Positions 39,614-60,400 of a DNA stretch of 64,000 nt are shown here, in pieces. Position numbers and translations under genes: made by a program. Numbering within the stretch: the stretch's first letter is position 1; each line of letters opens with the position of its first letter. The stretch lies in NCBI GenBank assembly GCA_041660605.1, contig JBAZWB010000002.1, positions 66,216-130,215 of the forward strand, written 5' to 3'. The notes under the pieces are model-generated. The model saw only the letters and a list, made by a program, of their open reading frames with translations. It was not told where the DNA came from and did not search any database. This DNA comes from Patescibacteria group bacterium. Its GTDB lineage: Bacteria > Patescibacteriota > Patescibacteriia > UBA10025 > JAHIVO01.

Positions 39614-39618
39614 AAATT

Positions 39619-40590: not shown

Positions 40591-41725
40591 TTTTTATTTT
40601 TTTTATGCCAGGTATTTTCATTCTCAATTTATGCAAAAACGCTGCTAGCCTAAAGGATGGTGAAGTTATAATTTTATTAATTTCTTTACTCAAGTCGTCT
40701 ATGCGTTTTTTTGCTTCATTATTGTATTTTAATCGCTCTATAAAAGTAGAAATTAAAAAATCTAATTTTCTCAATTGGCTGACGGCTTTTTTATCAACAG
40801 TAGCGTCTCGATTCTCTCTATATATATCAACTAATCGCTTGGCTGCGTTTTCCAGGCAATGTTCTTTTTCTATTATTTCACGATTTTTTACGGCCAGTCG
40901 AGGGTCATATTTTTGCATTTCCTTAACTAATTGATCGGCATTATATCGAATACCATATTGCCGCCCGGAAAAATTTTTTTTCCTTATCTCATAATAATTG
41001 TCTTGACGAAGCATACCGTCGCCTCCGTTATAGTCATAAACGATCACGTCTCGGTTACAGGACATGGCCTGCAAGACTCCTTTACCCAAGCTAATTACCA
41101 AATCAGCTTCATTTATGTATTCCTCAACTGGCCATACTGAATTTACATTTAAACCAATCACCTTTAAGTTCAAGCCTAATTTGCTGCAAGCACTTTCAAT
41201 AATCCCTTTATGATCACCAAAATAATGATTGCTGATTACCAATACATTTTTTAATTCCTTGCTGACTGGCTTGGTGGGCTTAAATCTTCCAGTCTCAGTA
41301 AAATTCCTTATTATCTCCAAGTCTTTTTCGTTTACAAATTTATTTTTCAGCATGCTCTCCGTGACTTCTTCACTCACAGCTAAATATTTGGCAATGCCTA
41401 TATCAAATTCTGGCAAATGTTCTAACTGAGGCAAAACGCCATGCTGCAAATAAACCATGGGTACTGCGGGGAAAAAATACCTAGCCAGCAATGCGCTTAC
41501 ATTATGATGCGCGTGAATTATATCAAACTTTGTACCTATAATTTCCTCTAGATTATCTACCACTGGGATGCCGCAGCCCTCTATCCTTTGCGAGACCTCG
41601 CCTTTAAATAATGTAAATACCACGACAAAATGGCCCAAAGCTTTAAGTTCATTGGCTAATTCGTATGTATATAATTCCGAACCGGCGTAATTTACAAGAT
41701 GATAATTTGTCAGTAATATCTTCAT
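40571..41725 (-). CDS. GT-B fold glycosyltransferase (GT4-like)
   Basis: 384 aa; MKILLTNYHLVNYAGSELYTYELANEL N-terminus. Confidence 0.55.
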   Translation of the reverse strand: MKILLTNYHLVNYAGSELYTYELANELKALGHFVVVFTLFKGEVSQRIEGCGIPVVDNLEEIIGTKFDIIHAHHNVSALLARYFFPAVPMVYLQHGVLPQLEHLPEFDIGIAKYLAVSEEVTESMLKNKFVNEKDLEIIRNFTETGRFKPTKPVSKELKNVLVISNHYFGDHKGIIESACSKLGLNLKVIGLNVNSVWPVEEYINEADLVISLGKGVLQAMSCNRDVIVYDYNGGDGMLRQDNYYEIRKKNFSGRQYGIRYNADQLVKEMQKYDPRLAVKNREIIEKEHCLENAAKRLVDIYRENRDATVDKKAVSQLRKLDFLISTFIERLKYNNEAKKRIDDLSKEINKIITSPSFRLAAFLHKLRMKIPGIKKIKNGHSRH

Positions 41726-43111
41726 CTACTCTTTTTTAGCAATAATAATATATTCGGGCAGGTCATCCAATTCTAATGAATCGGCATACCCGGCTAATCT
41801 TCCTCTGGATATTTTATATTTATTGAACCCTCCCGCCATCATCATCTCCTTGATCTCCTGCTGGCTATAACGATGGGTAAATCCTGCAAGTTCTGAGGTT
41901 TTATAGTAATCCGACAACTCATTCGGCATCACCATGTAAAGGGTACCATCTTTTATCAAGACCCTCTTGGCTTCCTGGATGTATGAAATAATATCGATTT
42001 TTTGTAAATGTAGAAAGGTATTTATAGAATAAACTAAATTAATTTGCTTATCCCCGACGGGTATTCGGCAACCATTTGTGATGAATAATTCAAACGATTT
42101 AATTTGCCTGTCTTTTTTAAAATTAACGCGCGCTTGGTTCAAATATTCCTGACTCACGTCAATACCAATTATTTTTTTTGCCCGATAGCCTATGTATTTT
42201 AAAATTCTGCCTACGCCAACTCCAATTTCTAAAACAATTGAATTAGAATCATAAAAATCTTTCAGCTTATCTGCTTCTTGCCGTCCCTCAAGCCAAAAGC
42301 GCTCTTCGTTACGGTTTGGTAAAATGTAATTAATGCTATTATCAGAACGCGCGAGCTCATTCCAATACATTTGGTAATAGCTCTTATGGGATTGGTAAAA
42401 CTCGATCACCTCGGCTGGAGTGCCTTGTCGAACCATCTTGCCGCTTTCTAGCAAAATCACCCTATGGCAAAATTTATTTACGGTAAATAAATCATGGCTG
42501 ACAAAAATTATCGTCTTGCCTTCATCACGTAAACGCTTAAAAACATCGTAGCATTTTTTTCTAAAATCCAAATCCCCCACGGCCAGCACCTCGTCCACCA
42601 ATAAAATATCCGCCTCAGCCTGGATAGCCGTGGCAAAAGCCAAACGCACCTGCATGCCGGAAGAAAAATTCTTCAGCTTCTGGTCGACAAATCTTTCCAG
42701 CTCGGCAAACTTTATTATATCGCTAAACTTTCCATCAATCGTACTGCGCGATAAACCCAGAATCGCGCCATACAGATAAACATTGTCGCGAGCCGATAAA
42801 TCACCCTGAAATCCCACACCCAGCTCAAGGAATGGCGCGATTGTACCGTTGACAATCACCCGGCCGGAATTTGGTTTCAAAATACCGGCAATGATTTTTA
42901 AGAGTGTCGATTTGCCCGAACCGTTGCGTCCGATAATACCGAGAAACTCGCCTTTTTTTACATTAAAACTTACCTCTTGCAAAGCCTTCAACCTTTCTGC
43001 CTGGCTGCGCTTAAGCATCCCTAAAAAATGCTCTTTCAGAGTATTTCTGCGCTCATGCGGCAGTTTGAAAATCTTGCTGACGTTTTGAATTTTAATAATT
43101 TCTTCTATCAT
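41726..43111 (-). CDS. Polysaccharide ABC exporter ATP-binding protein (Wzt/TagH-like) fused to a C-terminal SAM-dependent methyltransferase domain
   Basis: 461 aa; Walker A GRNGSGKST, signature LSGGMQVRLAFA, Walker B LLVDEVLAVGD, then VLEIGVGVGRIL methyltransferase motif I. Confidence 0.8.
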   Translation of the reverse strand: MIEEIIKIQNVSKIFKLPHERRNTLKEHFLGMLKRSQAERLKALQEVSFNVKKGEFLGIIGRNGSGKSTLLKIIAGILKPNSGRVIVNGTIAPFLELGVGFQGDLSARDNVYLYGAILGLSRSTIDGKFSDIIKFAELERFVDQKLKNFSSGMQVRLAFATAIQAEADILLVDEVLAVGDLDFRKKCYDVFKRLRDEGKTIIFVSHDLFTVNKFCHRVILLESGKMVRQGTPAEVIEFYQSHKSYYQMYWNELARSDNSINYILPNRNEERFWLEGRQEADKLKDFYDSNSIVLEIGVGVGRILKYIGYRAKKIIGIDVSQEYLNQARVNFKKDRQIKSFELFITNGCRIPVGDKQINLVYSINTFLHLQKIDIISYIQEAKRVLIKDGTLYMVMPNELSDYYKTSELAGFTHRYSQQEIKEMMMAGGFNKYKISRGRLAGYADSLELDDLPEYIIIAKKE

Positions 43112-43114
43112 TTT

Positions 43115-43882
43115 TTATAAATCTTCCGCAAAAAAAGGTTCGCGTTTTTTAAATACTAAGTAGCCGACAACAAAAACTGCCACAGTAATAAGGATAGAAC
43201 CAAAAATACCTTTTAAATCCGGGGTCTGGCCGTATATGACCGCCTCACGTGAATATTGGATAATCCGGGTCATCGGATTAAGGAAAACCCAAAAATGGTA
43301 TTTTTCCGGGATCATGGCTAGTGAATAAATTATCGGCGTGGCCCAAAAACCTGCCTGCAGCAATATTTCCCAGATATGTGATAAATCACGGAATTTTATG
43401 TTTAACGACGAAATTAAAAAACCCAGTCCCAAAACAATAAGATAAAGCTCTGCTAAAAATAAAATCAACAGCAAAAACGCCGGTGTCAACTGCACTCCGG
43501 AAAAAATAAAAAAAACGACGAAGACAATTAGATTAAGAAGTAAAGTTAAAAGAGAGGTAATTGTGGAAGCAATGACAATCAAAGTGCGGGGAAAAAATAC
43601 GCGGGAAATCAGCCCACCCTTGCTGATCAAGCTGTTTACCGCATTGGTCGTCCCTTCTGCCAGATAACCCCATAAAATTATACCGAGCAGTAAATATAAA
43701 TTATAATGTTCAATGTTAAAACGCAAAAAAATAGAAAAAACTAGATACGATATCCCGAATAAAAGCAACGGCTTAATAAAAGACCAAACATAACCCAGGA
43801 CAGAACTCTGGTATTTCAGTTTGAAGTCAGAGATCGCCAGTTCACGGATCAAATTTATTTCCTTCTGGTTTATTATCTTCAT
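43115..43882 (-). CDS. ABC-2 type polysaccharide exporter permease (Wzm/TagG-like)
   Basis: 255 aa; 6 TM helices; immediately upstream of and co-oriented with the ATPase. Confidence 0.8.
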   Translation of the reverse strand: MKIINQKEINLIRELAISDFKLKYQSSVLGYVWSFIKPLLLFGISYLVFSIFLRFNIEHYNLYLLLGIILWGYLAEGTTNAVNSLISKGGLISRVFFPRTLIVIASTITSLLTLLLNLIVFVVFFIFSGVQLTPAFLLLILFLAELYLIVLGLGFLISSLNIKFRDLSHIWEILLQAGFWATPIIYSLAMIPEKYHFWVFLNPMTRIIQYSREAVIYGQTPDLKGIFGSILITVAVFVVGYLVFKKREPFFAEDL

Positions 43883-44937: not shown

Positions 44938-45459
44938 TTATCCCTCACATTCTAAATCAGCAGCTAAATCGCCACAAACTGGCGCAGTAGTAGATACCCA
45001 GTTTGAACAGGAAGTACCATCCCCTTTCAGCCAATACCAGTGCGAAGTGCTAGTACTTGGTGATTCCATTAATGCATAGACTATGTAATATGGTTCGAGT
45101 TCTCCTGGGGTTGCGCCACAGGCAACATATTCATAGTTATATAGATTTGAATCCGCTCCCGCAGATCCTGCTTTTGGATCATCCGGTACTACTGAAATAT
45201 AATCCGTTGCCAATAGCGTGCCTAAAACGGATTTAGCATTATCTAATGCCGCAATCGAAGTAACATTTGGATAAGTACTGGAATTATCGTCTGAATACAG
45301 CACTAACCCGGTCCTAATCTGACCGAGGTCTGATTTTCTAGACGCGTCGCGGGCTTTTTCTCTAGCACCGTTCAGGGCCACCAAACCGATGGTAGCCAAA
45401 ATACCGATGATGGCGATAACCACCAATAACTCAATGAGTGTAAAACCTTTCTTTTTCAT
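44938..45459 (-). CDS. Type IV pilin (candidate major pilin)
   Basis: About 173 aa from [22 protein letters not shown]; [19 protein letters not shown]; C-terminal Cys pair. Confidence 0.8.
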
Positions 45460-45689
45460 GAATTCACCCCCTTTCATATGTTGAGAACGGTGAATCTTTT
45501 AATTGACTTATAACGATTCACAGATCACGGATCCGAGCTGACCCGTGATAATTATGAGCCAAAAAAGTATTACCGGTCTGCTGTTAATTTTTATTATTGA
45601 CCAAAGAACTATTGATAATATTGAATAAGTGATATATAAATAATATCATATTTTACCGTAATTGTCAAACAATTATCCACTATTTCCCT

Positions 45690-46895
45690 TTAAATAGCAC
45701 TGGAAAGGTTATACATCGGCAGTATAATGGCGGAAATGAGGAAGGCTACCCCGATACCCATGATAATCATGACTATCGGCTCAATCAAGGTGGTCATATT
45801 GCGTATTGAATTTTCCAGTTCCCGGGTGTAAAAATCTGAAACTTTTCCGAGTATTTTGTCCAATTGCCCGGACTGCTCTCCCACGCTCATCATCTGGGAA
45901 AGCATCAATGGCACTTCTTTATGCTGCACAAAGACCGTGGTGATGGAAGCGCCTCCCTCAACCTGCTCAATTGTCTCCCGGATTATATCGCGATACAAAG
46001 TATTCCCCACTACATCAGCTACGATGTCCAGGGACTTGGTCAGTGGCACGCCGGAAGCCAACAGTGTTGACAAAGACTGCGCAAAGCGGGAAATATAGGT
46101 CCGATTAAAAATTGGTCCGGCAATGGGAACTTTTATTTTCAGTAAATCAACCGTATGGCGCCCATTTTCCGTTTTTACATAAGCCCGGTAGCCGATTACA
46201 CATCCGATAATAGCCAGTATCATCAGCCACCAGAAACTACGCAGGAAATCCCCCATGCCCATGAATATCCTGGTAGTCACCGGCAGTTCCGCGGAACCCT
46301 CCTCAAAAATTGAGGTGATCTGAGGCAGGACGAACATCAGCATCAGGGAGCCGACCAGGAGCAAAGCGGATAAAATGAAAACCGGATAAATCATGGCGCC
46401 CTTGGCTTTACTGCGGAGATCATAATCCTTTTCCAGCTGATCAGCCAGATACACCAAAATCTCATCCAAACGGCCGGTTGTTTCCGCTGAGCGCACCATC
46501 TGGATGTAAAAATTGCTGAAGACTTTGGGATACTTGCCTAATGATTGCGATAATTTCGCGCCGCCATCCACTTCGTCGGCCAGATCGGAAATAACGCTCT
46601 TCAATCTGTTATTATCCGTTTGGCGCACCAGCACCCGCAAAGCGCGGACGATCGGCACGTTTGAGGAAATCATGACCGACAGCTGGCGGGAAAAAACTAC
46701 GATATCTTTCGCCTTGACGCCGGAACCGAAAGACAGGCCTTTTAGAAATTCCCTGGCTTTCTTTTCTTTCAAATCGACAATCACAAGATCCTTATCCCTT
46801 AGAATTCCATAGGCGATATTTTCGGTTGGCGCGACCACCATTCCATTGATTACCTCTCCGGTTTTATTTCTGGCTTTATAATTAAAATTGGCCAT
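45690..46895 (-). CDS. pilC: Type IV pilus assembly platform protein PilC (GspF family)
   Basis: 401 aa; two GspF repeats, 3 TM segments. Confidence 0.9.
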   Translation of the reverse strand: MANFNYKARNKTGEVINGMVVAPTENIAYGILRDKDLVIVDLKEKKAREFLKGLSFGSGVKAKDIVVFSRQLSVMISSNVPIVRALRVLVRQTDNNRLKSVISDLADEVDGGAKLSQSLGKYPKVFSNFYIQMVRSAETTGRLDEILVYLADQLEKDYDLRSKAKGAMIYPVFILSALLLVGSLMLMFVLPQITSIFEEGSAELPVTTRIFMGMGDFLRSFWWLMILAIIGCVIGYRAYVKTENGRHTVDLLKIKVPIAGPIFNRTYISRFAQSLSTLLASGVPLTKSLDIVADVVGNTLYRDIIRETIEQVEGGASITTVFVQHKEVPLMLSQMMSVGEQSGQLDKILGKVSDFYTRELENSIRNMTTLIEPIVMIIMGIGVAFLISAIILPMYNLSSAI

Positions 46896-46922: not shown

Positions 46923-47309
46923 TTAGCTAACCAGCTTTTTTACTTTTTCCACCACTTCGGAGGGCATAAAATGTGCCTTGATCAGATAGTCATTTGCACC
47001 GAGTGCCAATCCCTTATTTACATCCTCGCGCTGCCCGAGATTAGTCAGTAAAATTACTGGAATATTGCGGGTTTTTGCCTGTTTTTTCAGGGTTTTCAGG
47101 ACGTCAAATCCGCTCATTTTTGGCAGGATTATGTCCAATAATATTAACTGGGGCATCTCCTCTTGCGCCATTTTCAGGCCTTTCTCTCCATCATTGGCCT
47201 GCACCACTTGGAATCCCTCTAAATTAAGCTTGGCCTGATACATTCCCGCTAAAAAAGTATCATCCTCGACTAACAGAATTTTTGTTTTTACTGATTTATT
47301 TTTTGGCAT
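46923..47309 (-). CDS. Stand-alone response-regulator receiver domain (CheY/PilH-like)
   Basis: 128 aa; ILLVEDD...LILLDIILPKMSGF. Confidence 0.8.
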   Translation of the reverse strand: MPKNKSVKTKILLVEDDTFLAGMYQAKLNLEGFQVVQANDGEKGLKMAQEEMPQLILLDIILPKMSGFDVLKTLKKQAKTRNIPVILLTNLGQREDVNKGLALGANDYLIKAHFMPSEVVEKVKKLVS

Positions 47310-47328: not shown

Positions 47329-49080
47329 TTAATCTTTTGTTGCCCTGATTACCTCTGATAAAGAAGTTTTTCTCTCTAACGCCTTGAGGATGCCGTCTTG
47401 GCTCATCGCTACCATATTCTGCCGCTTGGCGGTTTCCTTGATGGCATCAATGGTAGGATTAGTGACAATGACATTCCTCAGCTCGTCATCAACTGCCAAT
47501 ATTTCATCGATTAACACCCGGCCCTTATAACCGGTGTTTTCACATTTCGTACATCCCTTGCCCTCATAGAATTCCAGTTTTGGTTTTTCCTTGCCAAACC
47601 GTATTTTTATTATTTCCGGCGGGATGGTTGATAGCTGCCTTTCCACTTCTTTGACCATTATCTCGGGCAGTTTAATCTTCTCCTGGCAGTACGGGCATAA
47701 ACGCCGCACCAGGCGTTGGGCAACGATAGTGGATAAGGCGGAGGTGACCAGGAAAGGTTCAATTTTCATATCAATCAAGCGCGGTATAGCGCCAAAAGAA
47801 TCATTGGTATGCAGAGTGGAGAGTACCAAGTGGCCGGTCAGCGCGGCATGGACCGCCAATTCCGCTGTTTCATTATCGCGAATTTCACCGACCATGATGA
47901 TATCCGGATCCTGGCGCAGGATGGAACGCAGACCGGCGGCAAATGTCAGACCGACATCAGGATTGATTTGGGACTGGTTAACGCCGTCAATATAATACTC
48001 AACCGGATCCTCCAGGGTAATAATATTGATGTCTTCCTTGTTCAAAATGGTCAATAATGCCGAAAGAGTAGTGGATTTTCCTGAACCAGTCGGCCCAGTC
48101 AGCAATATCATACCCACGGTTTTTTTGATTGACTGGCGCATTATTTCCAGATGTTCGCCTTCAAAGCCTAATTTTTCCAGGTCCAAAACTACTGCCGCCC
48201 GGTCTAAAATACGCATCACCACTTTTTCATTGCTGAACAGCGGCAGGGTGGAAACACGGTAATCAATGACCCTCCCGTCCCATTCAGTGCGGAAACGCCC
48301 GTCCTGCGGTACGCGGGTCTCGTCCAGTTTCAAATTGCATAGTACTTTTATCCTGGCCACGATGGAAGAATGCACGTATTTGGGTAAAACCAGCGAGGTA
48401 TGCAGGATACCGTCAACGCGATAACGCACCCTGGTCTCATTCTCTACCGGCTCAATATGTATGTCAGAAGCATTGCCCTCAACCGCGTGCTTCAAAATAA
48501 CTGAAACCATTTTTGAGACTGGGGCGCTTTTTACCACCTCTTCCATGCCCTTTTCCTTGCCGAGAATGGCGTCTAAATCGTTACCGTCAACTTTTTCCGT
48601 GCCAGCCAGCGCCTCTTCGACTTCAGCGCCCAGCGTGGCGTATTGCTTATGGGCAAAACGGAAACCGCTTTGGGAGATTATATAATACTTAATCTTAAAA
48701 CTATTTTTTCTGGCTATAAACTCAATGGCTTCAATAGCTTTGAAATCGCTGGGGTCAACCATGGCTACTCCCACCTCGCCGCCGTCCCGGCCGAAGGAAA
48801 CGATATGGTAATTTTCTGCCAATTCGCGGGGTATCACGTGCAGGACGGACTGTGAAATAGTCTTGCCAAACAGGTCGATATAGGGCACGCCAATTATTTT
48901 ACCGCGGACTTTCGTCAGATCTTCCTCGGAAACAATGCCCTTGCGGTTTATCAGATTCAATAATTCATCCTCATCTTTCACCTCCACTCTTAGCTCAGCC
49001 AATTTTTCTGCAGTCAGGTAGCCTTCCTCGACCAATATATCGAGAAAAGATTTTTTTGCTTGTATTTGCGTGTTTTCCAT
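47329..49080 (-). CDS. pilB: Type IV pilus assembly ATPase PilB (GspE family)
   Basis: 583 aa; N-terminal GSPII_E_N, Walker A LLTGPTGSGKSTTL, tetracysteine CPYC...CTKC. Confidence 0.9.
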   Translation of the reverse strand: MENTQIQAKKSFLDILVEEGYLTAEKLAELRVEVKDEDELLNLINRKGIVSEEDLTKVRGKIIGVPYIDLFGKTISQSVLHVIPRELAENYHIVSFGRDGGEVGVAMVDPSDFKAIEAIEFIARKNSFKIKYYIISQSGFRFAHKQYATLGAEVEEALAGTEKVDGNDLDAILGKEKGMEEVVKSAPVSKMVSVILKHAVEGNASDIHIEPVENETRVRYRVDGILHTSLVLPKYVHSSIVARIKVLCNLKLDETRVPQDGRFRTEWDGRVIDYRVSTLPLFSNEKVVMRILDRAAVVLDLEKLGFEGEHLEIMRQSIKKTVGMILLTGPTGSGKSTTLSALLTILNKEDINIITLEDPVEYYIDGVNQSQINPDVGLTFAAGLRSILRQDPDIIMVGEIRDNETAELAVHAALTGHLVLSTLHTNDSFGAIPRLIDMKIEPFLVTSALSTIVAQRLVRRLCPYCQEKIKLPEIMVKEVERQLSTIPPEIIKIRFGKEKPKLEFYEGKGCTKCENTGYKGRVLIDEILAVDDELRNVIVTNPTIDAIKETAKRQNMVAMSQDGILKALERKTSLSEVIRATKD

Positions 49081-49100: not shown

Positions 49101-50117
49101 CTAAAATTCTATCGGCTCAAAGGGATTATAATTGTAAGGGGAAGCTAATATATCCTTCGATGATTCATTGCCGCTATTGTCAACGCTGGTTATCGTATAA
49201 TAATAAGTAATATTCGGATCAATGGCCACCATCGCGCAGCTGCGCCCTGTTTTCTTATCAACGCTGATCTTCTCTAAAATGGCCGTATCAGTAACGCAGT
49301 CCAACGCCTCTACGCTTTCTTTAAGCACATGAGCTTCGACGCCGGGAGTTAATTTTTCCATCAGTTGACCAACCTGGCCTTTTATTTTTGATTCATAAAT
49401 CCTGATGCCGCTGGCATCATTTTCCGGCGGTTCCACCCAGGAAATCATCAGCTGGTCATTGCCAATATCGCTTATCTTCACATTGCTGGGTGCTGTGGGC
49501 GGAAATTCATCGTTAGGAATCGCGCTATACTGCTGAATATTCAATGAGCTTAAACCGTCCTGTTTATCGTCCGGTATATTAGGGTCATAGATGGCGCTTT
49601 TCACGGTATAAAAATAAACGGTGCCATTTGTTAAATCTGCATCCTCGAGGCTCATGCGCGTTTTGGCCGGATCAACAGGCATCAAGGCGACTGATTTTCC
49701 AAGAGTACCGGCTTTTTCGGAACGGAATATTTTTATTTTATTGAAATTCACCTGCTCAGGCAGTTGCCAGCTGATCAATAGTTTCCCCCCGATCCTGAGA
49801 TTATTCACGGATATATTCACCGGTGCCAGAGGAACCTTCTCGTCCAGCGCCATCCCCTCGTACTGTTCGGTGAAGCCGGCAAATTTCTTTCTTTCCAGAC
49901 TTAGAAACTGCGTATCAGAAAAAATTGAATCCTCAATCGCCGGCACTATTTTTCTGTCAGACAAAATCGCGGTGCTAAGAGACGAATTTACGGCCTTTGG
50001 CTTGGCCGCGGCAAAATAGCTTTTATAAACAAAATATCCGGCCGCGACTATAAAAACCGCCACGACTACCAATATTATTTTTGTTTTTTTATTAAATTCT
50101 GTTTTTTTGACCAACAT
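49101..50117 (-). CDS. Hypothetical membrane-anchored protein with FN3-like beta-sandwich repeats (pilus-associated?)
   Basis: 338 aa; N-terminal TM; PSNVKISDIGNDQLMISWVEPPENDASGIRIYESK FN3-like. Confidence 0.4.
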   Translation of the reverse strand: MLVKKTEFNKKTKIILVVVAVFIVAAGYFVYKSYFAAAKPKAVNSSLSTAILSDRKIVPAIEDSIFSDTQFLSLERKKFAGFTEQYEGMALDEKVPLAPVNISVNNLRIGGKLLISWQLPEQVNFNKIKIFRSEKAGTLGKSVALMPVDPAKTRMSLEDADLTNGTVYFYTVKSAIYDPNIPDDKQDGLSSLNIQQYSAIPNDEFPPTAPSNVKISDIGNDQLMISWVEPPENDASGIRIYESKIKGQVGQLMEKLTPGVEAHVLKESVEALDCVTDTAILEKISVDKKTGRSCAMVAIDPNITYYYTITSVDNSGNESSKDILASPYNYNPFEPIEF

Positions 50118-50120
50118 ATT

Positions 50121-50738
50121 TTATTTATAATAGGTGGTGAGATTTAGCGCGTAAACGTCCGTTTCCGGGGAGTATGAAAGGGAATTCAGCTCTAAGAGCG
50201 GCAGGCGCTGGCTCATATTATCCAGAAAATCTTTTAATTTGAAATAGCTGTCAATGCCTTTGATGCCGAGAGTGATGTTCAGGCTGCTGACTGCGCTGCC
50301 CTTGGCGGCGGTGTCGCCCAAAGTATTGCCCAAAGGACCGCTTTCTATGCTGTTCAGAACCAATTTATTTTCTGTAATAAAATCTTTTATTTCAATCATT
50401 AAGAAAGGTATTTCTGATTCGCTGGGCAAAAAATAACTCAGTTGATCCAGCTTTTCTTTCTGTATGCCGGAATATTTTTCCTTGAGCTTATTCAATTTAT
50501 CCAGGGTCAATTGCTTTTGCTGCAAGACACCCTCTTCCGTCCGCAGACTAGTGATGCCGGTATTGTTTATCTCTGTCAGCGTATCCTTGACAAACAGCAT
50601 ATAAGCTCCGCCCAGTATTATTAAAACTACCAGGGCAACAATAATTATAAAATATTTATTGAAGATATAGGCTATTTTTGTTTTTATTGATGCTAGTTTC
50701 ATATTTTTATCGCGGGAAAAGATAAATTGTCGGATCAA
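50121..50738 (-). CDS. PilO-like type IV pilus inner-membrane component
   Basis: 205 aa; single TM, coiled coil, then ...LPSESEIPFLMIEIKDF...LVLNSIE PilO-like block. Confidence 0.5.
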   Translation of the reverse strand: MIRQFIFSRDKNMKLASIKTKIAYIFNKYFIIIVALVVLIILGGAYMLFVKDTLTEINNTGITSLRTEEGVLQQKQLTLDKLNKLKEKYSGIQKEKLDQLSYFLPSESEIPFLMIEIKDFITENKLVLNSIESGPLGNTLGDTAAKGSAVSSLNITLGIKGIDSYFKLKDFLDNMSQRLPLLELNSLSYSPETDVYALNLTTYYK

Positions 50739-52602
50739 TCATTAATTCGGCATTAAAAAGAACGGGTTTTTCCACATTGGAATTTTCTGCGCCCTCCTCG
50801 GCTGCCTGCCCGAGATTATCAGAAAACACAATATTAGAAACGGTCGCCGCTTTTATTACATCCTTAGCCTGCTCATAAATCATTAATTGCTTGATGGCCG
50901 AATCATAGTCTTTGCCAGCCGCCGATAATTTTATATAGCCATTTACATCGGCAGTCATGTTGGTGTAGTAAACATCTGGGGTCGTATATTCTTCCAAAAT
51001 TTCAAATAACTTTGACCAGTATATATGCTGCGACATTAAGGTGGTGGTATCCTGGATATCCTGATTCAGGCTTTGAACGTTTTGCAGCAACTGATCGTAT
51101 TGCTTGATCCGGGCGTCAGCCTCAAATATTTTTTGTTTTACATCACCTATCTGTGCGGTAATATTATTTTTATACCAGTCTGACCAGACCCAGCCGCCAA
51201 ATGACAAGCCGAAGGCGATTATAATAAACAATGCCAGATACAGCCAGCGCGAAGCCAAAACTTTTACCTCAACCGCATCTTCTGGAATGAGATTTACTTC
51301 CCACTCCATATTTTCGTTTGTAGCTGGTTCGGTTCTTGGCTCGGTCATATTCATGCCGTCTTTTCCGCTTTTTGGCGGAGGAGGGGGCGGGATAGTATTT
51401 GCTATTTTTTCTTCCGGCTTTTCTTTTATAAATGTAGCTGGCCCCGCCTCTGACGGATGCAATAAATCAATTTTATCCAGCGGCTTTCTTTCCTTTGGTG
51501 CTGGCTCTGGAACTATTTCCGATTTAACTTCCGATACCATTGCTTCAGAGGGAATAGCTTTCTTCTTCCCGGCGAATATTCCAGTCAGCTTTCCCCATAT
51601 TTTTTTCAGCCAGATCGAAAACTTTGAAGGCCCCTGAAGTTTACCGGGTTTTTCTTTTTTTATTTGAACAGCTGGAGCAGGCGGTGGCGGAATTAATTCA
51701 AAACTGGGCAGTTCCTTCTTAATAGCTTCCGGTTTTGGCAAAACCGAAGCAGCTGCTTTTTTAGCTTCCTTCTCATTTTTTGGCTGCCGCTTAAAGGTAA
51801 ATATTTTTTTTATTGACTCCAATAAAGACTTCCACCAAACGGCCAGCTTTGATGGCCGTTTTATCTTTTTCTCCACTAGCTTTTTTATCTCCGGTTTAGA
51901 ATGTATAGAGGGCTTTATCAGCTCAATTGGTTTCAGTTTTTCCTCAACCTTGATCACCTCTTCCTTAGCAGGCGGATAAGTCTTCCTGACTGGCAGTATG
52001 AATGGTGCTGGTTCGCTTGCCGGTTGTACTATCTGGCTTTGCGGCTTGGTATCTGATTCACCGCTGCCATTTTTTACATACTCAGTGGTAATATTAATAA
52101 TCTCACCGCGGCGAGGTTTGATGTCGCTGGGTTTGAAAATCTTTTCTGATCTGACCGGCTTGTATTTAGGAAACTGATCTTCCGGATACTGGCCAAAATA
52201 CTTCTTCTCCGGCTTAGCCTGAATGTTTCTTTTTCTGGAAAATATTCCAGATATAAATTTCCAAAATTTCTGCCATAGACTTTCTCTGGAATCCATCCTC
52301 ATGGATTCCGGCTTGGTCGTGTATAATTTGACTTCTTTCCTGACCGGTGCCGGTGCGATTGGTTCGCGTATAATTTCCTTCCTGATATAAATCTTCTTTT
52401 GAGGAAAAATTTTCTCCTTTTTGCTCTCTGCGCTGGGCCGCTGGAATGCCTGTTTGAAAAACATCAAAACGCCCGACTGCTTGACAGCCGGCCTGATTTT
52501 TTCCGCTTTGACAGGTCCCATTAATTCAATATGCGTTACTTCCTGCCGTTTGAAATTTTTGATTTTTAATTTTTCCTCATCAGGGAGGAGATTAATAGGC
52601 AT
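50707..52602 (-). CDS. PilN-like pilus assembly protein with about 450-aa K/P/E-rich low-complexity N-terminal extension
   Basis: 631 aa; C-terminal TM + PilN-like domain; the N-terminal region carries three Trp-containing amphipathic repeats. Confidence 0.55.
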   Translation of the reverse strand: MPINLLPDEEKLKIKNFKRQEVTHIELMGPVKAEKIRPAVKQSGVLMFFKQAFQRPSAESKKEKIFPQKKIYIRKEIIREPIAPAPVRKEVKLYTTKPESMRMDSRESLWQKFWKFISGIFSRKRNIQAKPEKKYFGQYPEDQFPKYKPVRSEKIFKPSDIKPRRGEIINITTEYVKNGSGESDTKPQSQIVQPASEPAPFILPVRKTYPPAKEEVIKVEEKLKPIELIKPSIHSKPEIKKLVEKKIKRPSKLAVWWKSLLESIKKIFTFKRQPKNEKEAKKAAASVLPKPEAIKKELPSFELIPPPPAPAVQIKKEKPGKLQGPSKFSIWLKKIWGKLTGIFAGKKKAIPSEAMVSEVKSEIVPEPAPKERKPLDKIDLLHPSEAGPATFIKEKPEEKIANTIPPPPPPKSGKDGMNMTEPRTEPATNENMEWEVNLIPEDAVEVKVLASRWLYLALFIIIAFGLSFGGWVWSDWYKNNITAQIGDVKQKIFEADARIKQYDQLLQNVQSLNQDIQDTTTLMSQHIYWSKLFEILEEYTTPDVYYTNMTADVNGYIKLSAAGKDYDSAIKQLMIYEQAKDVIKAATVSNIVFSDNLGQAAEEGAENSNVEKPVLFNAELMIDPTIYLFPR

Positions 52603-52830
52603 TATTTTTGTTTTATTTTGGTTTTTTGGTTGAACTCCGGTAAAAAACAGCCTTTTGCCTATAAAATAAGGCGATTCATATCCCCTATGCAGGGAGACTA
52701 TGAGTCTTTTACCTCTGTATATATTTTAGCACATTTAAAAAAATAAGTCAACCCTTTTTAGCTTTTTCGACAAAATAAAACCGCTATCACTACCCTGCCT
52801 GATAGCTATAGCACATTTTAAAAATAACTT

Positions 52831-53949
52831 TTAAACAATCTCGCGCATAGCCAAACCGATGGCGACAGATAATTTTGGCCCTAATTGTTTAAGCATTTTA
52901 TCTATTTCAACCGGATGTATGACCCTGGCCCAGGGATCACCGACAAATGACTTGATATTGAATATGTTCTGGATGTAATCCGTCATATTGACCAGGAAAG
53001 ACGAACCGCCGGTCATGATCACCTTGGAGATCGGCTGTTTATTCTGATTTTGGTAAATATTCAAAATATACCTGACCTCATTTATTATAGAATTGATCAG
53101 ATAAGCGACCGGCTCCGGAAGATTTTCAATTTTTTCTTTCATTACCGCCATACCCATATCTCTCTTGAATTGCTCTGCCTGCCCTTCTGACAAACCCATG
53201 ATATCAACCAGTGATTTGGTGATATTCTTGCCGCCAACGTCGATACTGCGGTTGAGGATGGGCACGCCGCCGGAAAAAATTATAATACTGGTAGAAGCGC
53301 TGCCGATGTCAATTACCATTATCGGATTGCGATCGTTGCCTACCAGCGATCTCTCCAGAGCGAATGATTCGGTTTCCAGGCCAACCAGCTGGATGCCAAC
53401 TTCCTTAAAAATCTCTACATAGCGATTGACCAGATTTTTCGGAGCCGCTGTCAGCAATACTTTCAAATTGCCTTTTCTGGGCGGATTGTCCGATTCCCCA
53501 TCTTTATCTTTTTTATTTTTCTTGCCAGTTTTTTTATCATCCAAATCTTCCTTATTTATTCCTGCCTGGCCAGGCTCTTTCAGTATCTCCCAGTCCAAAA
53601 TCATCTCTTCCAGTGGAATTGGTACAAACTTCTTTGCCTCCCAGCGCACGGCGGAAATAAGGTCCTTCTTATTCATTTCCGGCAGGCTGATGATCGAGCT
53701 GAATACGCTGAAACTGGGCATGGCGGAAATCGCCCGGTCGGAAGAAACTTTTGATGTTTTCAGCAATTCCTTCAGATGGCCGGCCAGCGCACGGCGAGCC
53801 TCCGGACTGTCGTCTTTAATAATATTATATGTTTCATCTATAAAACCGTAGGTCACCAGCTGCGGCCGGTTGTTGACGCTTTTTAACTCCACTACTTTCA
53901 GGCTCGATCCTCCCAGATCAATGCCGACATAACTTTGTTTTTTTGCCAC
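52831..53949 (-). CDS. pilM: Type IV pilus assembly protein PilM (actin-like ATPase fold) with insert
   Basis: 372 aa; SYVGIDLGGSSLKVVELK N-terminus; DIGSASTSIIIFSGG. Confidence 0.85.
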   Translation of the reverse strand: MAKKQSYVGIDLGGSSLKVVELKSVNNRPQLVTYGFIDETYNIIKDDSPEARRALAGHLKELLKTSKVSSDRAISAMPSFSVFSSIISLPEMNKKDLISAVRWEAKKFVPIPLEEMILDWEILKEPGQAGINKEDLDDKKTGKKNKKDKDGESDNPPRKGNLKVLLTAAPKNLVNRYVEIFKEVGIQLVGLETESFALERSLVGNDRNPIMVIDIGSASTSIIIFSGGVPILNRSIDVGGKNITKSLVDIMGLSEGQAEQFKRDMGMAVMKEKIENLPEPVAYLINSIINEVRYILNIYQNQNKQPISKVIMTGGSSFLVNMTDYIQNIFNIKSFVGDPWARVIHPVEIDKMLKQLGPKLSVAIGLAMREIV

Positions 53950-54000: not shown

Positions 54001-54369
54001 TTATTTTGTTTTTGATTTGATAATAATAGTTGTAAGAATTTTTATAATCTCCTGAGATTTATCTTTTAGCATCACCTTGGATTCCTTGGTAACTCTGTTG
54101 ACCGAAAATATATATTCAAGCCAGTTATCAGTTTCAATAGCTGATTTCCTGGCATAATGAAGATAATTAATAAAATCCTTCCTGCTTGTTGCCCCGGAGC
54201 CTTCAGCCAAATTACCAGAAATCGAGGTCGCTGAACGCACAATCTGACCAACTAAAACCTTAATAATGGAATTATATGGGATCTTCTTGCAAAGATTAAA
54301 AACCATTAAACTCAAACTAAATGATTTCTTCCAAATATCCAAATCCTTATAATTTTTAAACGTACCCAT
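54001..54369 (-). CDS. Four-helix-bundle protein (23S rRNA intervening-sequence protein family)
   Basis: 122 aa; YKDLDIWKKSF...IVRSATSISGNLAEGSG...ARKSAIETDNWLE family signature. Confidence 0.8.
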   Translation of the reverse strand: MGTFKNYKDLDIWKKSFSLSLMVFNLCKKIPYNSIIKVLVGQIVRSATSISGNLAEGSGATSRKDFINYLHYARKSAIETDNWLEYIFSVNRVTKESKVMLKDKSQEIIKILTTIIIKSKTK

Positions 54370-54420: not shown

Positions 54421-57400
54421 CTATGGTATGACCTGCTGATATACCGGCAGCGCTTTTGTAAAGTCTGATAAACCCGGCGGCGTATTGGCTACCACCCTTC
54501 CATCATACACAATCTGTTCAGACGGAGCAAGATCTTTGGAATACTTCCTGTCAAAACTGTAACCCTTGGCTACGAACAAACCGGAGACCTGGAGAGGTAA
54601 TCGATAATTAACCACCAGATTACCGGTCCCCTCCTTGAGGCCACGGTATTCGCCATCTCCGGCTGTTGTCTCAACTGTATCGTTGCCGCGGCGCAGCCGT
54701 AATACCATTTCAGATTTGCCGCTGACGCCTGGCTGGTAATCACCCCTGCCGATAAAAGACTCTACTAAAGTGGTAATATCCCGCAGATAGACCGTCTCAT
54801 CAGTAGTCCATTCGGTATCGCTGATATTTTGGGCAGTTTCCGAGACATCATCAGTCATTAGCGCGCCATAAGGATTTGAGCTGAAATCAGGATAATCTCT
54901 CACCAAACCCTGCCTGGTCTGGAATCCCACTCCTCCGCTGTCGCAAACACTGGCACGTAAGTGCGCATCTAATATTTCCACATTGGCAGGCAGATTAATT
55001 CCTTTAAACCGTAAATATGTCCTTTCGGCGCTACCGGCATTCCAGCCGATATTCATGCAGGCGGCACCCTGATCATAACTGCCTGGTAAGGCCGCAGTAT
55101 CATTGCCTAGATCTGTTATATCATAATTCACCTGTTGCGGTGAAAATTCTATTATTAATTCTGCCGGGGAACCATCCTCAACTGAACTAAAACTGCGATA
55201 TTCATCGCCACTGGCATCACCCTCTTTCAACACGACTCCCATATATGAAGTTGCATTATCATAATATGTCTTTTCATACTCATCGGAATTTATATACTTC
55301 TGTACCAAAGACTTGATGTCCGGAGTGATGTTTTCGCCATTATCAACCCAATCAGTAACATCATAGCTGACGCTATTGGAGGTGGGTATATCATACAAAT
55401 TCTGGGCGTTAGGATTCTGAAAACTTGGAGGAGGAACAGTATGATTAAAAGCATAAATGTCATTATAATTAGCCAGATATATCCTACCGATAAAATCACC
55501 AGCGACCGCATTGTCACCTGTTAATTTTATTTTAGCGGATTTAATTTCCGAGTTGGGCGGGATATTCAAGCCGCCGGTGCCAAAACCCCAGCGCAAGTAC
55601 GAACGGTAGGTGACGCCAGCATCTAAACCGAACTTTAATGAATCGCCGTCATTTACATTATTATAAACAGCTCCAGCTTTTGAAACATAAGCGTCGTCAA
55701 CGCCAGCCTGGACTGTCTGCGATACTGGCAATCTTCTGCCAGTACTGATAACGCCCTTTACAACATCATCCGTGGTATCCGGATCAATAGCCACAAACAC
55801 GCCAGCCAGCTGGTCAACCGTGGAATTAATGTAAATATTGCCGCGCACGATTACCGCCGCTGAAGCCATCTCGCTGATGGAATCAAGCGTGCCGGAATTA
55901 TAATAAGTATTGTCGTTGATTTCCAGATCGCCATCAATCACAATCAATCCATTGCCAGAAGTTCCATTAAAACCATTTTCAAAAGTCATTTCATTATTTA
56001 TGACGTAATGGTCCGCTCCGCTAAAATGATAAATCTGGCCGTCTAATGCCATACTGCCGTGAGTGATGCTGCAGTTACTGATATCAACTACGCTGCCGCT
56101 GGCGTCTACCTGCGTCTGAACTCTATTGCCATTACGATTCAGACCTCCAGTATTTGCAACTAAACCATCTATATCCAAAGTTTCCAAAACATTTTGCCCA
56201 AGCGGGAATCCCGCGCCCGCCGTCCACGAACCGCCGTGGTCCGCGCAGCTGATCTCGGAAACATAAGCGGGAAGGCTGCACTTACCGCCGATCAATGAAT
56301 CCAGGCCCTGCTGATAAAAACCGCTGGTTGGCAATCCGGTCTGGGTCTGAGAGTAATAGCTAGGGATGCCCTGAATGCTGCCGTCTGCCAATATTAAATA
56401 TGTTGAAGTAAAATCTTCAGAACCTCTGGGCGGCGGCGCCAGCTGGATATTCTCCTGGGCGTAAATATCGCTGTACATAGTATTGACCCAGGGGATGCCG
56501 ATCAAAGCGCCTACCGGCATGACCTCCAGCCAACCCAGGCCGGATTTAAACTTGCCGGGAGTCCAGCGGTTGTATTTCAAATCAGAGGCTACACAATATT
56601 TTTCTGCGCTCGATGGCCAACTATAAGTAATACAATAAGGATATTGGGGATTAGTGCAATCAAGTGATGACCCAAAATTATCCAGCGCGCCGGTAGTCAG
56701 CCAGCGTTTTTCCGTTCGCCAATTGCCATCATCCCCGGAACCGACAATATACATATACGCAGTATCAATAGCCATCCCATTGACATATTTACTCGCCGCC
56801 GCGCCAGTTACCACCCCACTGCCGGCATCGCCAAAGTCACCGGCTGGACAGGCGCCTGCAGTGCAGAGCGCGCCGGTATTAATATTATATTTTTCAATTC
56901 TCAAATCTTCTTCAAACTCATCATTTCCTGCAATATAAATATATTCCTGGTCAATATCCAGCTCACCGAGAATAAGGGTGGCAGACTGCCCGGCAATCAC
57001 CCCACCAGTCCCAAAATCACCGGCTGGACAGGCGCCTGCAGTGCAGAGCGCGCCGGTATCCAAACGGCGTTTTTCGATATGCCAGTCATTAGCAACGGTG
57101 CCGCCAATATACATGTATTCACTGTCGATTTTTATTGAATACAGCGTAACATTCGTCCCTGCGACAGTGATTATTCCGCTCCCGGCATCGCCAAAGTCAC
57201 CGTCTGAACAAGTGCCAGCGGTGCAGAGCGCGCCGGTATCCAGGCTGCGTTTTTCGATACGCCCTTTATTAGAATCATTGAAGCCTGCTACATATAAATA
57301 ATTATCATCAATAACAATATCTTGAGCCTTATTACTATCGCTGGCACCGGTTATTATTCCGGCAGTGCCGAATGAATCAACCAATGAACCATCTGACAGA

Positions 57401-60400
57401 CGGCGTTTTTCGATACGCCAGTTATTAGAGTCGTCCTTTCCAGATATGTACATATAACTGCCATCAATAGCTATGCCACCTGCATTCATCCCATCAACAC
57501 TGGTAACGGTTCCACCTGTACCAAAACTTGCGTACAAAGAGCCGTCGGATAACAACCTTTTTTCTATACGCCAGTTACTGGGCGGCGTAGTCGCGCCAAA
57601 CACATACATATATGTTGAGTCAATGGCGATTCTTCTAGCACCATTGCCTCCAGCAGGTCCATTTACTACCCCCCCAATGCCAAAGGTCCCAGCTGAACAG
57701 ACGCCAGCAGCACATAATTCCCCGTCAGCTGACCGGCGTTTTTCTATATGCCACGTTGCGTCATCATTCGAACCTATGGTGTACATATAATCAGTTTCAA
57801 GGGCTACGTCATTCGCACTTGACGTTGAAGCTACTTCCACTATTCCATCTCCATCAAACGCTCCGCATTGCAGGCCGCCGGCAAAAGCGACCGGATCAAC
57901 CTGCGTATCAATCCAAATAATATGCGGATTGCCCAAGGCATCCAGTTTAACGCTGTTTAAGCGCGAATGCCAGTCTGATGACGCGTCAACAGTCAAATAT
58001 AGATCATCATAATTTAATAGGCCGCCGGAATCCCCAGATGCCGTTACCCAGGCGCCGCTGCCACCGGAAGACAAAGGGCTCCAATAGCGGTAGCGCACAT
58101 CAGCGATCCCGCGCCAAGCCAAGTCGTCGCCCCAAACCACGTGTGGCCTGTCTTGGTCATCAAACGTCAAATCCATGGAATGGCTGGCATGAACCGTCAT
58201 TTCCGGTTCACCCACAGCCGGACGATTAGGCCAGATATCATCAAACTGCCCATCTACTGGATTTGCATCCACCCAATCCTTAGCGGCCGTATCCCACTGC
58301 AAAAAGATTAAACGCCCCGGATCGCGCCAGAGCAAGCCCGGTCGGTTGTCAGAAGTCAGGGCAATTTTGGGATCAGCGCCTTCTGGATTAGGAATACCGA
58401 TGCCCCAACTGTTTGAATCAATATTAGCCGATACGTCATCATCAGGGCCGTCAGCAGGGTCAGCGTCCACCCAACCGCTACCATCCCACCAGCGGTAAAA
58501 AATTTCTTCGCCCGAAGCAGTACTGGCCGCGGTATTTTCCTGCCAGACAATGTGGGGCCTTTGCTCCGGCGTCTCATTGCCCAGGGCCAGTCTGGGATTA
58601 TTAGATTCAGTAGCGGTATTGCTGACATTAACAAAACCATTGGCCGTACCGTCAGCCGTCACCCAAGCCGTGCCATTATTCCAGCGGTAATATATTTCCG
58701 CTAAAGCATATGAATCTTTTCGATAAACAATATGCGGATGATTGTTTCGGTCTATTTCCATAGAGGGCATATAACTCCCCGTATCAACCTGGCTCGGCGC
58801 TTGCCAGGACCTCGCCGTACTGTCCCAGGATGAATAATAAACAATGCTATTTTCGTCCCAAGCCAGATGCGGCAGGTCATTGCCGTCCAGCGCTAAAGAG
58901 AGACGTTCGGCATCCTCGCTCTCTTTACCGGCCGGTTTTGCAACCTGGCCGTTAACGCCCGGCTGGTACTCACTGTCGTCCGCGGTCAGCCAGCGGCCAT
59001 TTTTGTATTTAATATAATAAATGACATAACTGGCGGTGGCATCGTTATAATTCACCCAGGCCAGATGCGGATCTCCGGCTGAATCAATGGCGATGTCCGG
59101 ATATCCCGGATTATCATAAATATTAGTGGCTACTTTTTTTGTATTACTGACATTAACGGCCGGCAGCCAGCGCGAGCGCGTGCTGAAATCGTTCTTTTCC
59201 GCGTTCCAGCCCCATCCGAACAGGCTATATAACGGTATTTCATCGGGATTCAAATCCGGATCGCCAAGGTACGACTGGGTATCTACGCTAGTGCCAACCG
59301 TACTGTAGCTCCCCTTATTACCCTGCCCATCGTCATACTCTCCGCTCCAGCTGATCCAGCCCCAGGCACAAGGCTGTGTTGAGCCAGCGATACCGCAGTT
59401 ATAGCCGGCGCCGATGTCTTTCAAGGACATAATGCGGGCCCAACCGTCTATGCCATGCGTCGTGCCGTTAAAATTGGAAGTAGCAAAAGTATGGCACACG
59501 TCATTTACCGGATCAATCGTACAGGTGCCTGCTTGCCCACCCGAGGCGCTACGGCTACAGGTATATCTTTTGTCATAATCAAACAAACAAGTGGCCGATG
59601 CCGGCACGGCGCAATGAGTCAAATTCACCGTGGTGCACCAAGCGCTATTATCGGAGCACTGGCCGTACATATTACCGTCTTTATCATAGCAGTAGCCATA
59701 AGTAACTCCATCCGGCGGACTGCCGGCGCTCTCATTGCAAGTGTTTGCCACGCCACAATCAATGTCAGTGTAACAACCCTTTTGCGAATCATTACTGCAG
59801 ACGCTCTCATATGAACTTATCCAGCCTAGGCCGGTGGTAACTGGTTCTGCTGCTGGTGATATTTTATAAATAAAATTTGTACCATAATCTGTTGACCAGA
59901 TACTGGATCCGTCATTTATGATCTGCTTAGGCTCTGACGGATTTCCAAAGTCAAACCTTTTTATGGTGCTCTGATTAATGGGATCTATTTGATAAACAGA
60001 ATGTTTCTGCGCATCCCCCAGCCATAAATTACCGTGAAAATATTCCAGCCCATACATGTCATCGCCAGTCCAGTCGCCATCAGTTATTTGAATAACATTG
60101 CCATTTGCTGGATCGAGCCTGGTCAGTCCCGACTGGCGAGCTACCCATAGATATCGGTTGTCAAAAGCCAAGTCATACGGCTTAGTTATGCCTGCGCCTA
60201 AATTGTAAGTATTATTTACTGAACCATCTAAACCAATTCGTGAAATAAAATTACTGCCGTAGTTTGGCGCCCAGACATACTTGCCGTCAAACAGCGGCCA
60301 GGTAGGCGAACTGCCGACTCCATAACGGGCTGATTCTACGCCGTCACTCACCCGGATTCGCGATACTTCCCCAGCCACCACATTATGAGTCACCCACAGC

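Follow-up and report, generated by a model that had tools for sequence, protein, structure and literature searches.

The window analysed here, a stretch of 64,000 nucleotides from a Patescibacteria group bacterium (contig JBAZWB010000002.1), carries a complete type IV pilus operon of the monoderm type in which a pilN gene of unusual length, long pilN, is flanked by pilM and pilO. The gene is a single open reading frame (ORF) that starts at the first ATG downstream of an in-frame stop, and its GC content is even throughout (0.41-0.45), with no compositional break. Its product, long PilN, matches at 100% identity a database protein listed as 'hypothetical protein [Patescibacteria group bacterium]' and appears to combine a complete PilN with a long N-terminal extension that bears a second copy of the putative PilM-docking motif. 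The order pilM, long pilN, pilO is identical in three related loci (L001-L003). The three genes, and then the features of long PilN from its N-terminus, are given below in window coordinates (muH, hydrophobic moment; z, net charge; D, a lipid-binding discriminant defined further on; pLDDT, predicted local distance difference test score).

52831-53949, minus strand: pilM (Pfam PilM_2, 6.8e-40; TIGR01175, 1.7e-54)
50707-52602, minus strand: long pilN, a single ORF of 631 residues plus the stop codon (50707-50709)
50121-50738, minus strand: pilO-like gene (Pfam PilO, 7.4e-5, exceeding the gathering score)
52564-52602, minus strand: motif 1, residues 1-13 (MPINLLPDEEKLK), the N-terminal INLLP copy, from conservation and hhalign
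52435-52473, minus strand: U0, residues 44-56 (GVLMFFKQAFQRP), a short aromatic-basic motif about 40 residues past motif 1, from conservation
52228-52284, minus strand: U1, amphipathic helix 1, residues 107-125 (ESLWQKFWKFISGIFSRKR), muH 0.60, z +5, AlphaFold2 helix at 109-121
52141-52185, minus strand: conserved linear motif, residues 140-154 (PEDQFPKYKPVRSEK), P145 and Y147 invariant in the subfamily, pattern PEDQFPKYKPVxxEK
51784-51852, minus strand: U2, amphipathic helix 2, residues 251-273 (SKLAVWWKSLLESIKKIFTFKRQ), muH 0.68, D = 2.11, AlphaFold2 helix at 252-268
51559-51627, minus strand: U3, amphipathic helix 3, residues 326-348 (SKFSIWLKKIWGKLTGIFAGKKK), muH 0.57, D = 2.36, AlphaFold2 helix at 327-343
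51268-51303, minus strand: motif 2, residues 434-445 (WEVNLIPEDAVE), at the canonical position before the transmembrane (TM) helix, from profile alignment and conservation
51184-51246, minus strand: TM helix, residues 453-473, from hydropathy and AlphaFold2
51031-51183, minus strand: extracytoplasmic long helix (coiled coil), residues 474-524, pLDDT 95-98, aligned to the helix of M. xanthus PilN
50710-51027, minus strand: PilN/GspL-type ferredoxin-like core, residues 526-631, α-β-β-α-β-β, from AlphaFold2 and Foldseek

An earlier reading made from the letters of this DNA (the original prediction) had described the C-terminus of the protein as PilN-like, and this was borne out over about 200 residues by a profile match to the PilN of Myxococcus xanthus and by a GspL-type fold. 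Kyte-Doolittle windows above 1.4 are confined to residues 443-475, with a sole TM-quality segment at about 453-473, and AlphaFold2 predicts an uninterrupted helix from residue 452. The AlphaFold2 model of the C-terminal 199 residues (mean pLDDT 88.5) consists of a helix at model residues 18-91 followed by an α-β-β-α-β-β core, for which the best Foldseek matches were the periplasmic domains of PulL, EpsL, and XcpY (TM-score 0.62-0.73, probability 1.0); PilO came next, after these GspL proteins. In the literature, the periplasmic domain of GspL is regarded as equivalent in structure to PilN (PMC4471445). A family profile (A4) built from 34 C-terminal regions matched M. xanthus PilN (PDB 3jc8 chain Na) at E = 2.3e-5 over 137 aligned residues and also matched P0153, a protein annotated PF05137, at E = 8.4e-5, while a word-indexed homolog search with the same profile gave 2 matches. 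Taken singly, the long PilN sequence had no Pfam match at E <= 0.1 and left the PF05137 gathering score unmet; of 21 relatives, 3 were touched by that model, the best of them at E = 0.0065. The full-length profile (A3) gave only a low-complexity chance match among PDB sequences. The one curated NCBIfam match was NF045709, the Amuc_1101 PilM-PilN fusion (16.2 bits, E = 0.0036, cutoff 650). Based on these sequence and model comparisons, we accepted the protein as a divergent PilN of the monoderm-type pilus assembly platform.

The likeness to canonical PilN (T. thermophilus, M. xanthus, and P. aeruginosa; PF05137) covers the position between pilM and pilO, the INLLP-type motif that precedes a single TM helix by about 12 residues, the coiled coil, and the ferredoxin-like periplasmic core. 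The canonical cytoplasmic tail, however, has about 20-30 residues (PMC7613929), whereas 452 residues precede the TM helix of long PilN, with a second docking motif at the tip of the tail and amphipathic helices along it. Like long PilN, the GspL, EpsL, PulL, and XcpY proteins of the type II secretion system have a large cytoplasmic part on the N-terminal side of a sole TM helix, but in GspL this part is a folded PilM-like actin-fold domain (in effect PilM and PilN fused), whereas in long PilN it is predicted to be disordered, has no Pfam domain, and carries candidate docking peptides for a separate PilM. The Amuc_1101 fusion model aligns through its PilN-like part only (positions 352-484) to residues 431-563 of long PilN, that is, from motif 2 onwards, but long PilN has no PilM domain, and PilM is encoded by a separate upstream gene. 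Long PilN is a genuine PilN, neither a GspL nor a PilM-PilN fusion. Its N-terminus probably lies in the cytoplasm, as its charge of +37 (positive-inside rule) and the precedent of PilN suggest.

The feature that the original prediction overlooked is the main one, namely a second INLLP-type motif at the extreme N-terminus. Motif 1 reads MPINLLPDEEK and motif 2 WEVNLIPEDA, the VNLIP of the latter (residues 436-440) ending 12 residues ahead of the TM helix. In the alignment to PDB 3jc8, the family consensus 'dvNLiPee' pairs with RINLLPVR, residues 4-9 of M. xanthus PilN, and the N-terminus of T. thermophilus PilN, taken from a cloning primer, is MVIRLNLLPK (PMC6325625). Motif 2, the internal one, is thus homologous by position to the N-terminus of canonical PilN, and all sequence upstream of it, including motif 1, is an addition ahead of a complete PilN. 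The core of motif 1 occupies residues 3-7 from Met1, the same placement as in canonical PilN, where the N-terminal peptide fits the IA-IC cleft of the actin-like ATPase PilM (PMC7613929, PMC4471445). By resemblance to that peptide either motif would be expected to bind PilM, which is the presumed ligand of both.

Both motifs are strongly conserved. They are invariant in the five homologs found first, and among 21 subfamily members M1, I3, N4, L5, L6, and P7 of motif 1 and N437, L438, and P440 of motif 2 do not vary. Across 104 proteins of the wider family, the consensus of motif 1 is M-x-[DE]-I-N-L-L-P-[DE]-E-L-[RK] and that of motif 2 is [LFW]-[DE]-V-N-L-[IV]-P-E-[ED]-L, with its N, L, and P conserved in 100%; the two share [DE]-[IV]-N-L-[LIV]-P-[DE]-[ED]-L. 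When aligned with hhalign to the 197-column PilN profile, the profile of the N-terminal 27 residues fell solely on motif 2 (11 columns, P = 6e-5).

These 104 are the complete proteins with both motifs among the best 151 cluster representatives from a profile search that was run exhaustively against 1.84 billion such representatives. At E <= 1e-3 the family comprised 2,575 proteins in this search, of which 281 reached E <= 1e-30. The spacers between their motifs run from 113 to 569 residues (median 216), contain 16% K, 12% P, and 10% E, and are net-positive in 94%. The long tail had been singled out as unusual, which holds against model organisms and not within this family, where a long spacer is the rule. 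All named members belong to Patescibacteria or Candidatus Nomurabacteria and are labelled 'hypothetical protein'. The A3 profile, with a reach limited to the close subfamily, was used to scan GTDB species representatives and found 13 genomes, each with an uninterrupted ORF of 582-735 residues and both motifs; one is the closed 1.31-Mb chromosome of a Candidatus Kerfeldbacteria. The GC content of these loci spans 30-55%, and the K/P/E-rich composition is therefore no by-product of base composition. Four metagenome-assembled genomes among the GTDB representatives with a Patescibacteria-type locus (L006, L008, L014, and L015) are titled 'uncultured Gammaproteobacteria bacterium' and were submitted in bulk as co-assemblies; it is probable that these titles are placeholders or wrong labels and not evidence for the family outside the candidate phyla radiation (CPR).

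Between the two motifs lies a tail of the basic, low-complexity kind that had been expected. Residues 1-450 contain 16.7% K, 12.2% P, and 10.9% E with a net charge of +35, and the Lys/Pro/Glu-rich residues 1-436 (net +37) are predicted to be disordered save for three amphipathic helices, the only helices in the AlphaFold2 model of residues 1-450, the remainder of which has pLDDT below 50. The three ~20-residue units to which the original prediction had drawn attention are present verbatim at residues 107-125, 251-273, and 326-348 (U1-U3), and their interfacial amphipathic character was upheld. They are the top three 18-residue muH windows of the protein (protein mean 0.23, sd 0.12), U2 being the highest, and 500 shuffles of residues 1-450 yielded a mean of 0.11 and a maximum of 2 such proline-free windows, against the 3 observed. 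They are also similar to one another beyond shuffled sequences, with BLOSUM62 local scores of 46, 46, and 29, where the null gave 17 +/- 4.4; a score of 46 was reached in none of 5000 shuffles. Their hydrophobic faces are LWFWFIIF (U1), LWWLLSIIF, and FSWLIWLIF; Lys, Arg, and Ser lie opposite them or in the tail. Repeats at the DNA level within long pilN are at chance level, and U1-U3 are old as units.

As a reference for these values we used the membrane-targeting sequences (MTS) of E. coli FtsA and MinD, together with the HeliQuest-type discriminant D = 0.944 muH + 0.33 z, for which the lipid-binding threshold is 1.34. The FtsA MTS (GSWIKRLNSWLRKEF) has a mean hydrophobicity <H> of 0.41, muH 0.61, z +3, and D 1.57, and the MinD MTS (KKGFLKRLFGG) has <H> 0.27, muH 0.41, z +4, and D 1.71; for U1-U3 the corresponding ranges are <H> 0.52-0.57, muH 0.41-0.56 in the direct comparison and up to 0.68 in the 18-residue windows, z +3 to +6, and D 1.5-2.4. 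In hydrophobicity, moment, and charge U1-U3 thus lie within or beyond the values of helices with proven membrane targeting, with which they share a physicochemical class defined by an aromatic or aliphatic face and a cationic face or tail. By analogy, they may bind the membrane. The FtsA and MinD sequences serve as membrane anchors for an actin-like protein or an ATPase. One MinD MTS on its own is a weak binder, and stable binding depends on multivalency, with at least two copies (PMC6803595). Those sequences are single, C-terminal, and part of the actin-like protein or ATPase itself, whereas the helices of long PilN are internal, repeated, and would be supplied in trans by a bitopic partner.

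The units recur across the family. Aromatic-basic units were found in 86 of the 104 spacers and in 17 of 104 shuffled spacers, and by stricter criteria in 49 and 1, respectively. Their number tracks the length of the spacer, from 0.85 at 100-200 residues to 3.6 at 450-600 residues (rho = 0.64, p = 3e-13), and the median distance from motif 1 to the first unit is 43 residues, the place that U0 occupies in the window protein. U0 (pattern GVLxFFKxAFxRP) does not vary at G44, V45, L46, F48, and P56 across the subfamily, and distant family members carry equivalent 'PSxFxRLFxKK' motifs; U0 has no AlphaFold2 helix, and its D is 1.03. How the number of units changes is indicated by one related locus (L007, which encodes P0002), where a unit module of about 213 nt has recently been duplicated in tandem (positions 3973-4270, 89% DNA identity over 85 nt) to give four in-register copies of the helix-coding core. 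These repeats were seen by gap-free repeat finding and not by Tandem Repeats Finder. In view of this recent duplication, unit number appears to change by tandem duplication.

We consider the best overall explanation, which in our judgement stands at about an even chance, to be a complete PilN with a tail that presents a second PilM-docking site on a membrane-surface tether. A complete PilN would have acquired a disordered, cationic, cytoplasmic N-terminal extension of about 430 residues, the helices of which would sit in the inner (cytoplasmic) leaflet and hold the linker at several sites on the membrane surface, their multivalency making the binding stable. Each PilN would then offer two PilM-docking peptides, one directly beneath the TM helix and the other at the end of the tether, itself tens of nanometres long, some 40 residues farther out than the last membrane pin. 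The contour of such a tether would measure about 150 nm (430 x 0.36 nm), which is on the scale of these ultra-small cells. PilM is soluble alone and membrane-bound only via PilN, and PilM-PilN stimulates the assembly ATPase (PMC6325625). That the PilM cleft can be filled by a PilN peptide that is internal, with no free N-terminus, follows from the layout of a crystallised PilM-PilN chimera of P. aeruginosa (5EOU), in which the PilN peptide lies at the C-terminal end (residues 356-372, past the PilM alignment). The outcome could be more PilM protomers or a higher local concentration of PilM around the PilNO platform, or the bridging of neighbouring PilMNO units, and it might stabilise the cytoplasmic PilM ring, coupled to the PilB ATPase, in cells that have no PilP/PilQ scaffold. 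The PilM:PilN stoichiometry would then be 2:1. The bolder form of the proposal, that in much of Patescibacteria two PilM molecules are held simultaneously by each PilN in a double or laterally cross-linked PilM lattice, is tentative, and we think it more doubtful than the tether itself.

Several observations weigh against the tether with two docking sites. The hhalign probability for the pairing of motif 1 with motif 2 is just 65%, and the 27-column profile of motif 1, too short alone, found only chance matches in the PDB (E >= 0.3), with PilN absent from them. The Pro of motif 1 is replaced by K, Q, R, N, or H in 18 of the 104 proteins and that of motif 2 in none, and this looser motif could signal a weaker or different function. 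Local alignment of U1-U3 to the FtsA and MinD sequences does not differ from the shuffled null, and Pfam FtsA_C matches 1 of 21 members only (E = 0.11). In the lack of significant sequence similarity, the likeness to FtsA and MinD is one of analogy and not of homology, and the argument for membrane binding is accordingly a purely physicochemical one. By the stricter criteria, strong amphipathic helices are missing from about half of the members. Conservation of the repeats among relatives was a further question for the original prediction, and here the kind and number of the units are kept, contrary to the refuting condition set beforehand, while the sequence is not: positional identity of U1-U3 to 13 relatives is only 12-21%, and U1-U3 are conserved as a physicochemical class, not as sequence. 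The corresponding values are 76% for motif 1, 78% for motif 2, 73% for residues 44-56, and 57% for residues 140-154 (against 5-21% in the flanks of the last). As residues 44-56 and 140-154 are better conserved and have no assigned role, the main function of the extension may sit there, with PilB, PilC, or a second surface of PilM as possible docking partners.

The main rival, which we regard as unlikely though less so than the others, keeps one PilM per PilN and makes motif 1 an intramolecular competitor, or a capture and hand-over site, that regulates PilM occupancy and PilB activation; the extension would then be a regulatory 'fishing line' with no second structural site. With consensus sequences so nearly identical, both motifs should compete for the same IA-IC cleft, and the more degenerate state of motif 1 relative to motif 2 is what a lower-affinity capture site predicts. 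Binding of PilN is known to alter the partners of PilM and the stimulation of the ATPase in model systems (PMC6325625), and separate transcription units for pilM and pilN would permit control of their ratio. It is not obvious, however, that capture needs up to 569 residues or several membrane pins, and motif 1 is invariant across the close subfamily.

A second alternative would have motif 1 recruit a partner other than PilM, for instance an FtsA-like actin-fold protein with an IA-IC cleft, or PilB/PilC, linking the platform to the divisome or the motor; the GVLxFFKxAF and FPKYKP islands would in that case be the real functional sites. FtsN offers a precedent, as a bitopic protein that docks the actin-fold FtsA by a short N-terminal cytoplasmic peptide in the IA-IC cleft, the one that PilM uses for PilN (PMC7613929), and apart from motif 1 the best-conserved islands of the extension are without an assigned function. 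Yet the binding modes of FtsN and PilN differ (PMC7613929), the short tail of FtsN bears a single motif, with no duplication or long tether described for it, motif 1 fits the PilM-docking consensus residue for residue, and the locus shows no pointer to the divisome. We consider this alternative improbable.

Lower still is the probability that nucleic acid is the ligand of the basic disordered tail, such as DNA taken up in pilus-dependent transformation. Nucleic-acid binding was a possibility that the original prediction had raised and for which we obtained no specific support. The net charge of +35 to +37 and 21% Lys+Arg would suit such a role, PilMNO is part of the Thermus DNA translocator (PMC6325625), and CPR bacteria are enriched in type IV pili and competence genes (PMC6744442). 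Pfam scans, however, detected no known nucleic-acid-binding domain or motif, 13% of the tail residues are acidic, and DNA binding leaves both the aromatic-faced helices and the protein-docking peptide unexplained, whereas the scaling of helix number with linker length fits membrane pinning.

The last alternative, a frameshift or assembly fusion of two genes, or a short PilN from Met432 (two residues ahead of motif 2, giving a canonical-looking product) behind a spurious upstream frame, has next to no chance of being right: the frameshift set beforehand as a refutation was excluded by the uninterrupted ORFs of the 13 species-level genomes, the closed chromosome included, and of about 100 cluster representatives, the extension has conserved islands along its whole length, Met1 is preceded by a conserved promoter, base composition shows no break, and the Met before motif 2 is L, F, I, G, or R in relatives, so that an internal start is not a feature of the family.

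Type IV pili are among the few conserved machines enriched in CPR bacteria. The arrangement of PilM and its coupling to PilB are debated even in model systems. If a double PilM lattice exists, it would be a cytoplasmic pilus architecture unseen in any model organism, and it might offset the missing PilP/PilQ alignment complex in ultra-small, host-dependent cells. The layout of the family hints at an unusual construction of the cytoplasmic ring of the pilus machine, and the duplicated docking peptide together with the predicted membrane-hugging tether makes for a concrete and cheaply testable hypothesis on PilM:PilN stoichiometry. It would also be an example of a predicted membrane-targeting helix given in trans to an actin-like protein. 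At 2,575 representatives the family is large, its members being annotated 'hypothetical protein' and below the Pfam PilN threshold, and dual [DE][IV]NL[LIV]P[DE] motifs flanking a K/P/E-rich spacer are offered here as an annotation rule. The practical impact is moderate, as a known machine is modified and no new system is revealed. Type IV pili have been implicated in the episymbiosis, twitching, and DNA uptake of Patescibacteria (PMC6744442, PMC12206443). A CPR-enriched PilN family was listed by Méheust et al., its architecture not described (PMC6744442), and in a study of the Saccharibacteria pilus PilN1 and PilN2 were named solely as alignment proteins (PMC11623550). Searches of the open-access full-text literature yielded no account of a PilN that is long or carries both motifs, although an earlier mention elsewhere is possible.

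The remaining features of the operon, and the promoter of long pilN, are as follows.

52723-52751, minus strand: sigma-70-type promoter, TTGACT-17 nt-TGcTAAAAT, 10/12 match with an extended -10
49101-50117, minus strand: protein with a TM segment and a fibronectin-III domain (fn3, 2.9e-6)
47329-49080, minus strand: pilB (T2SSE, 2.7e-127)
46923-47309, minus strand: response regulator (Response_reg, 1.5e-23)
45690-46895, minus strand: pilC (T2SSF, 1.8e-62)
44938-45477, minus strand: pilin (N_methyl, 2e-9)

The PilM of the window matches T. thermophilus PilM (2YCH) at E = 1.5e-27. Compared with that protein it has a Lys-rich insertion of about 38 residues (KEDLDDKKTGKKNKKDKDGESDNPPRKG) at residues ~124-161, which divides the Pfam and PDB alignments into two stretches. 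The gap of 228 bp between pilM and pilN (52603-52830, minus strand) contains the promoter, of which a block of about 40 nt is identical in the relative L001. Directly 3' of pilM there is a hairpin followed by a T-run (-14.6 kcal/mol, z-score -1.9), and the 5' leader of pilN, of about 114 nt, is more stable than its shuffles (-25.3 kcal/mol, z-score -2.7). Given the hairpin with its T-run, the conserved promoter, and the leader in the gap, pilM appears to be transcribed apart from pilN-pilO-pilB-pilC. An Rfam scan of the locus, the 228-bp gap included, returned no credible match.

No secretin is found in the type IV pilus operon, and its absence has already been reported for CPR bacteria (PMC6744442). 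The listed pilO ORF begins at a TTG and overlaps the 3' end of pilN by 32 nt (window 50702-50738), while an alternative ATG 12 codons downstream (nt 50702) would place the start 5 nt past the pilN stop; in L001, pilO begins 6 nt past the end of pilN. The true start is probably the ATG at nt 50702. The fn3 protein between pilO and pilB has 338 residues and an N-terminal TM helix, a gene of 384 residues stands there in L001 and L002, and the protein could belong to the platform as an extracytoplasmic part specific to this lineage.

Immediately upstream of the pilus operon lies a giant ORF of 3,167 residues (54421-63924, minus strand), and in L001 a gene of at least 1,356 residues is likewise upstream of pilM; the giant ORF possibly encodes a pilus-associated surface or adhesin protein. 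Between it and pilM, a gene at 54001-54369 (minus strand) belongs to the 23S rRNA-intervening-sequence protein family (Pfam, 6.6e-27) and has a low GC content, about 0.31-0.34 against 0.41-0.50 nearby. Downstream of the pilin, a cell-envelope glycan cluster (38261-43882, minus strand) contains an ABC-2 permease, a fusion of an ABC (ATP-binding cassette) ATPase with an S-adenosylmethionine (SAM)-methyltransferase (41726-43111), and three glycosyltransferases.

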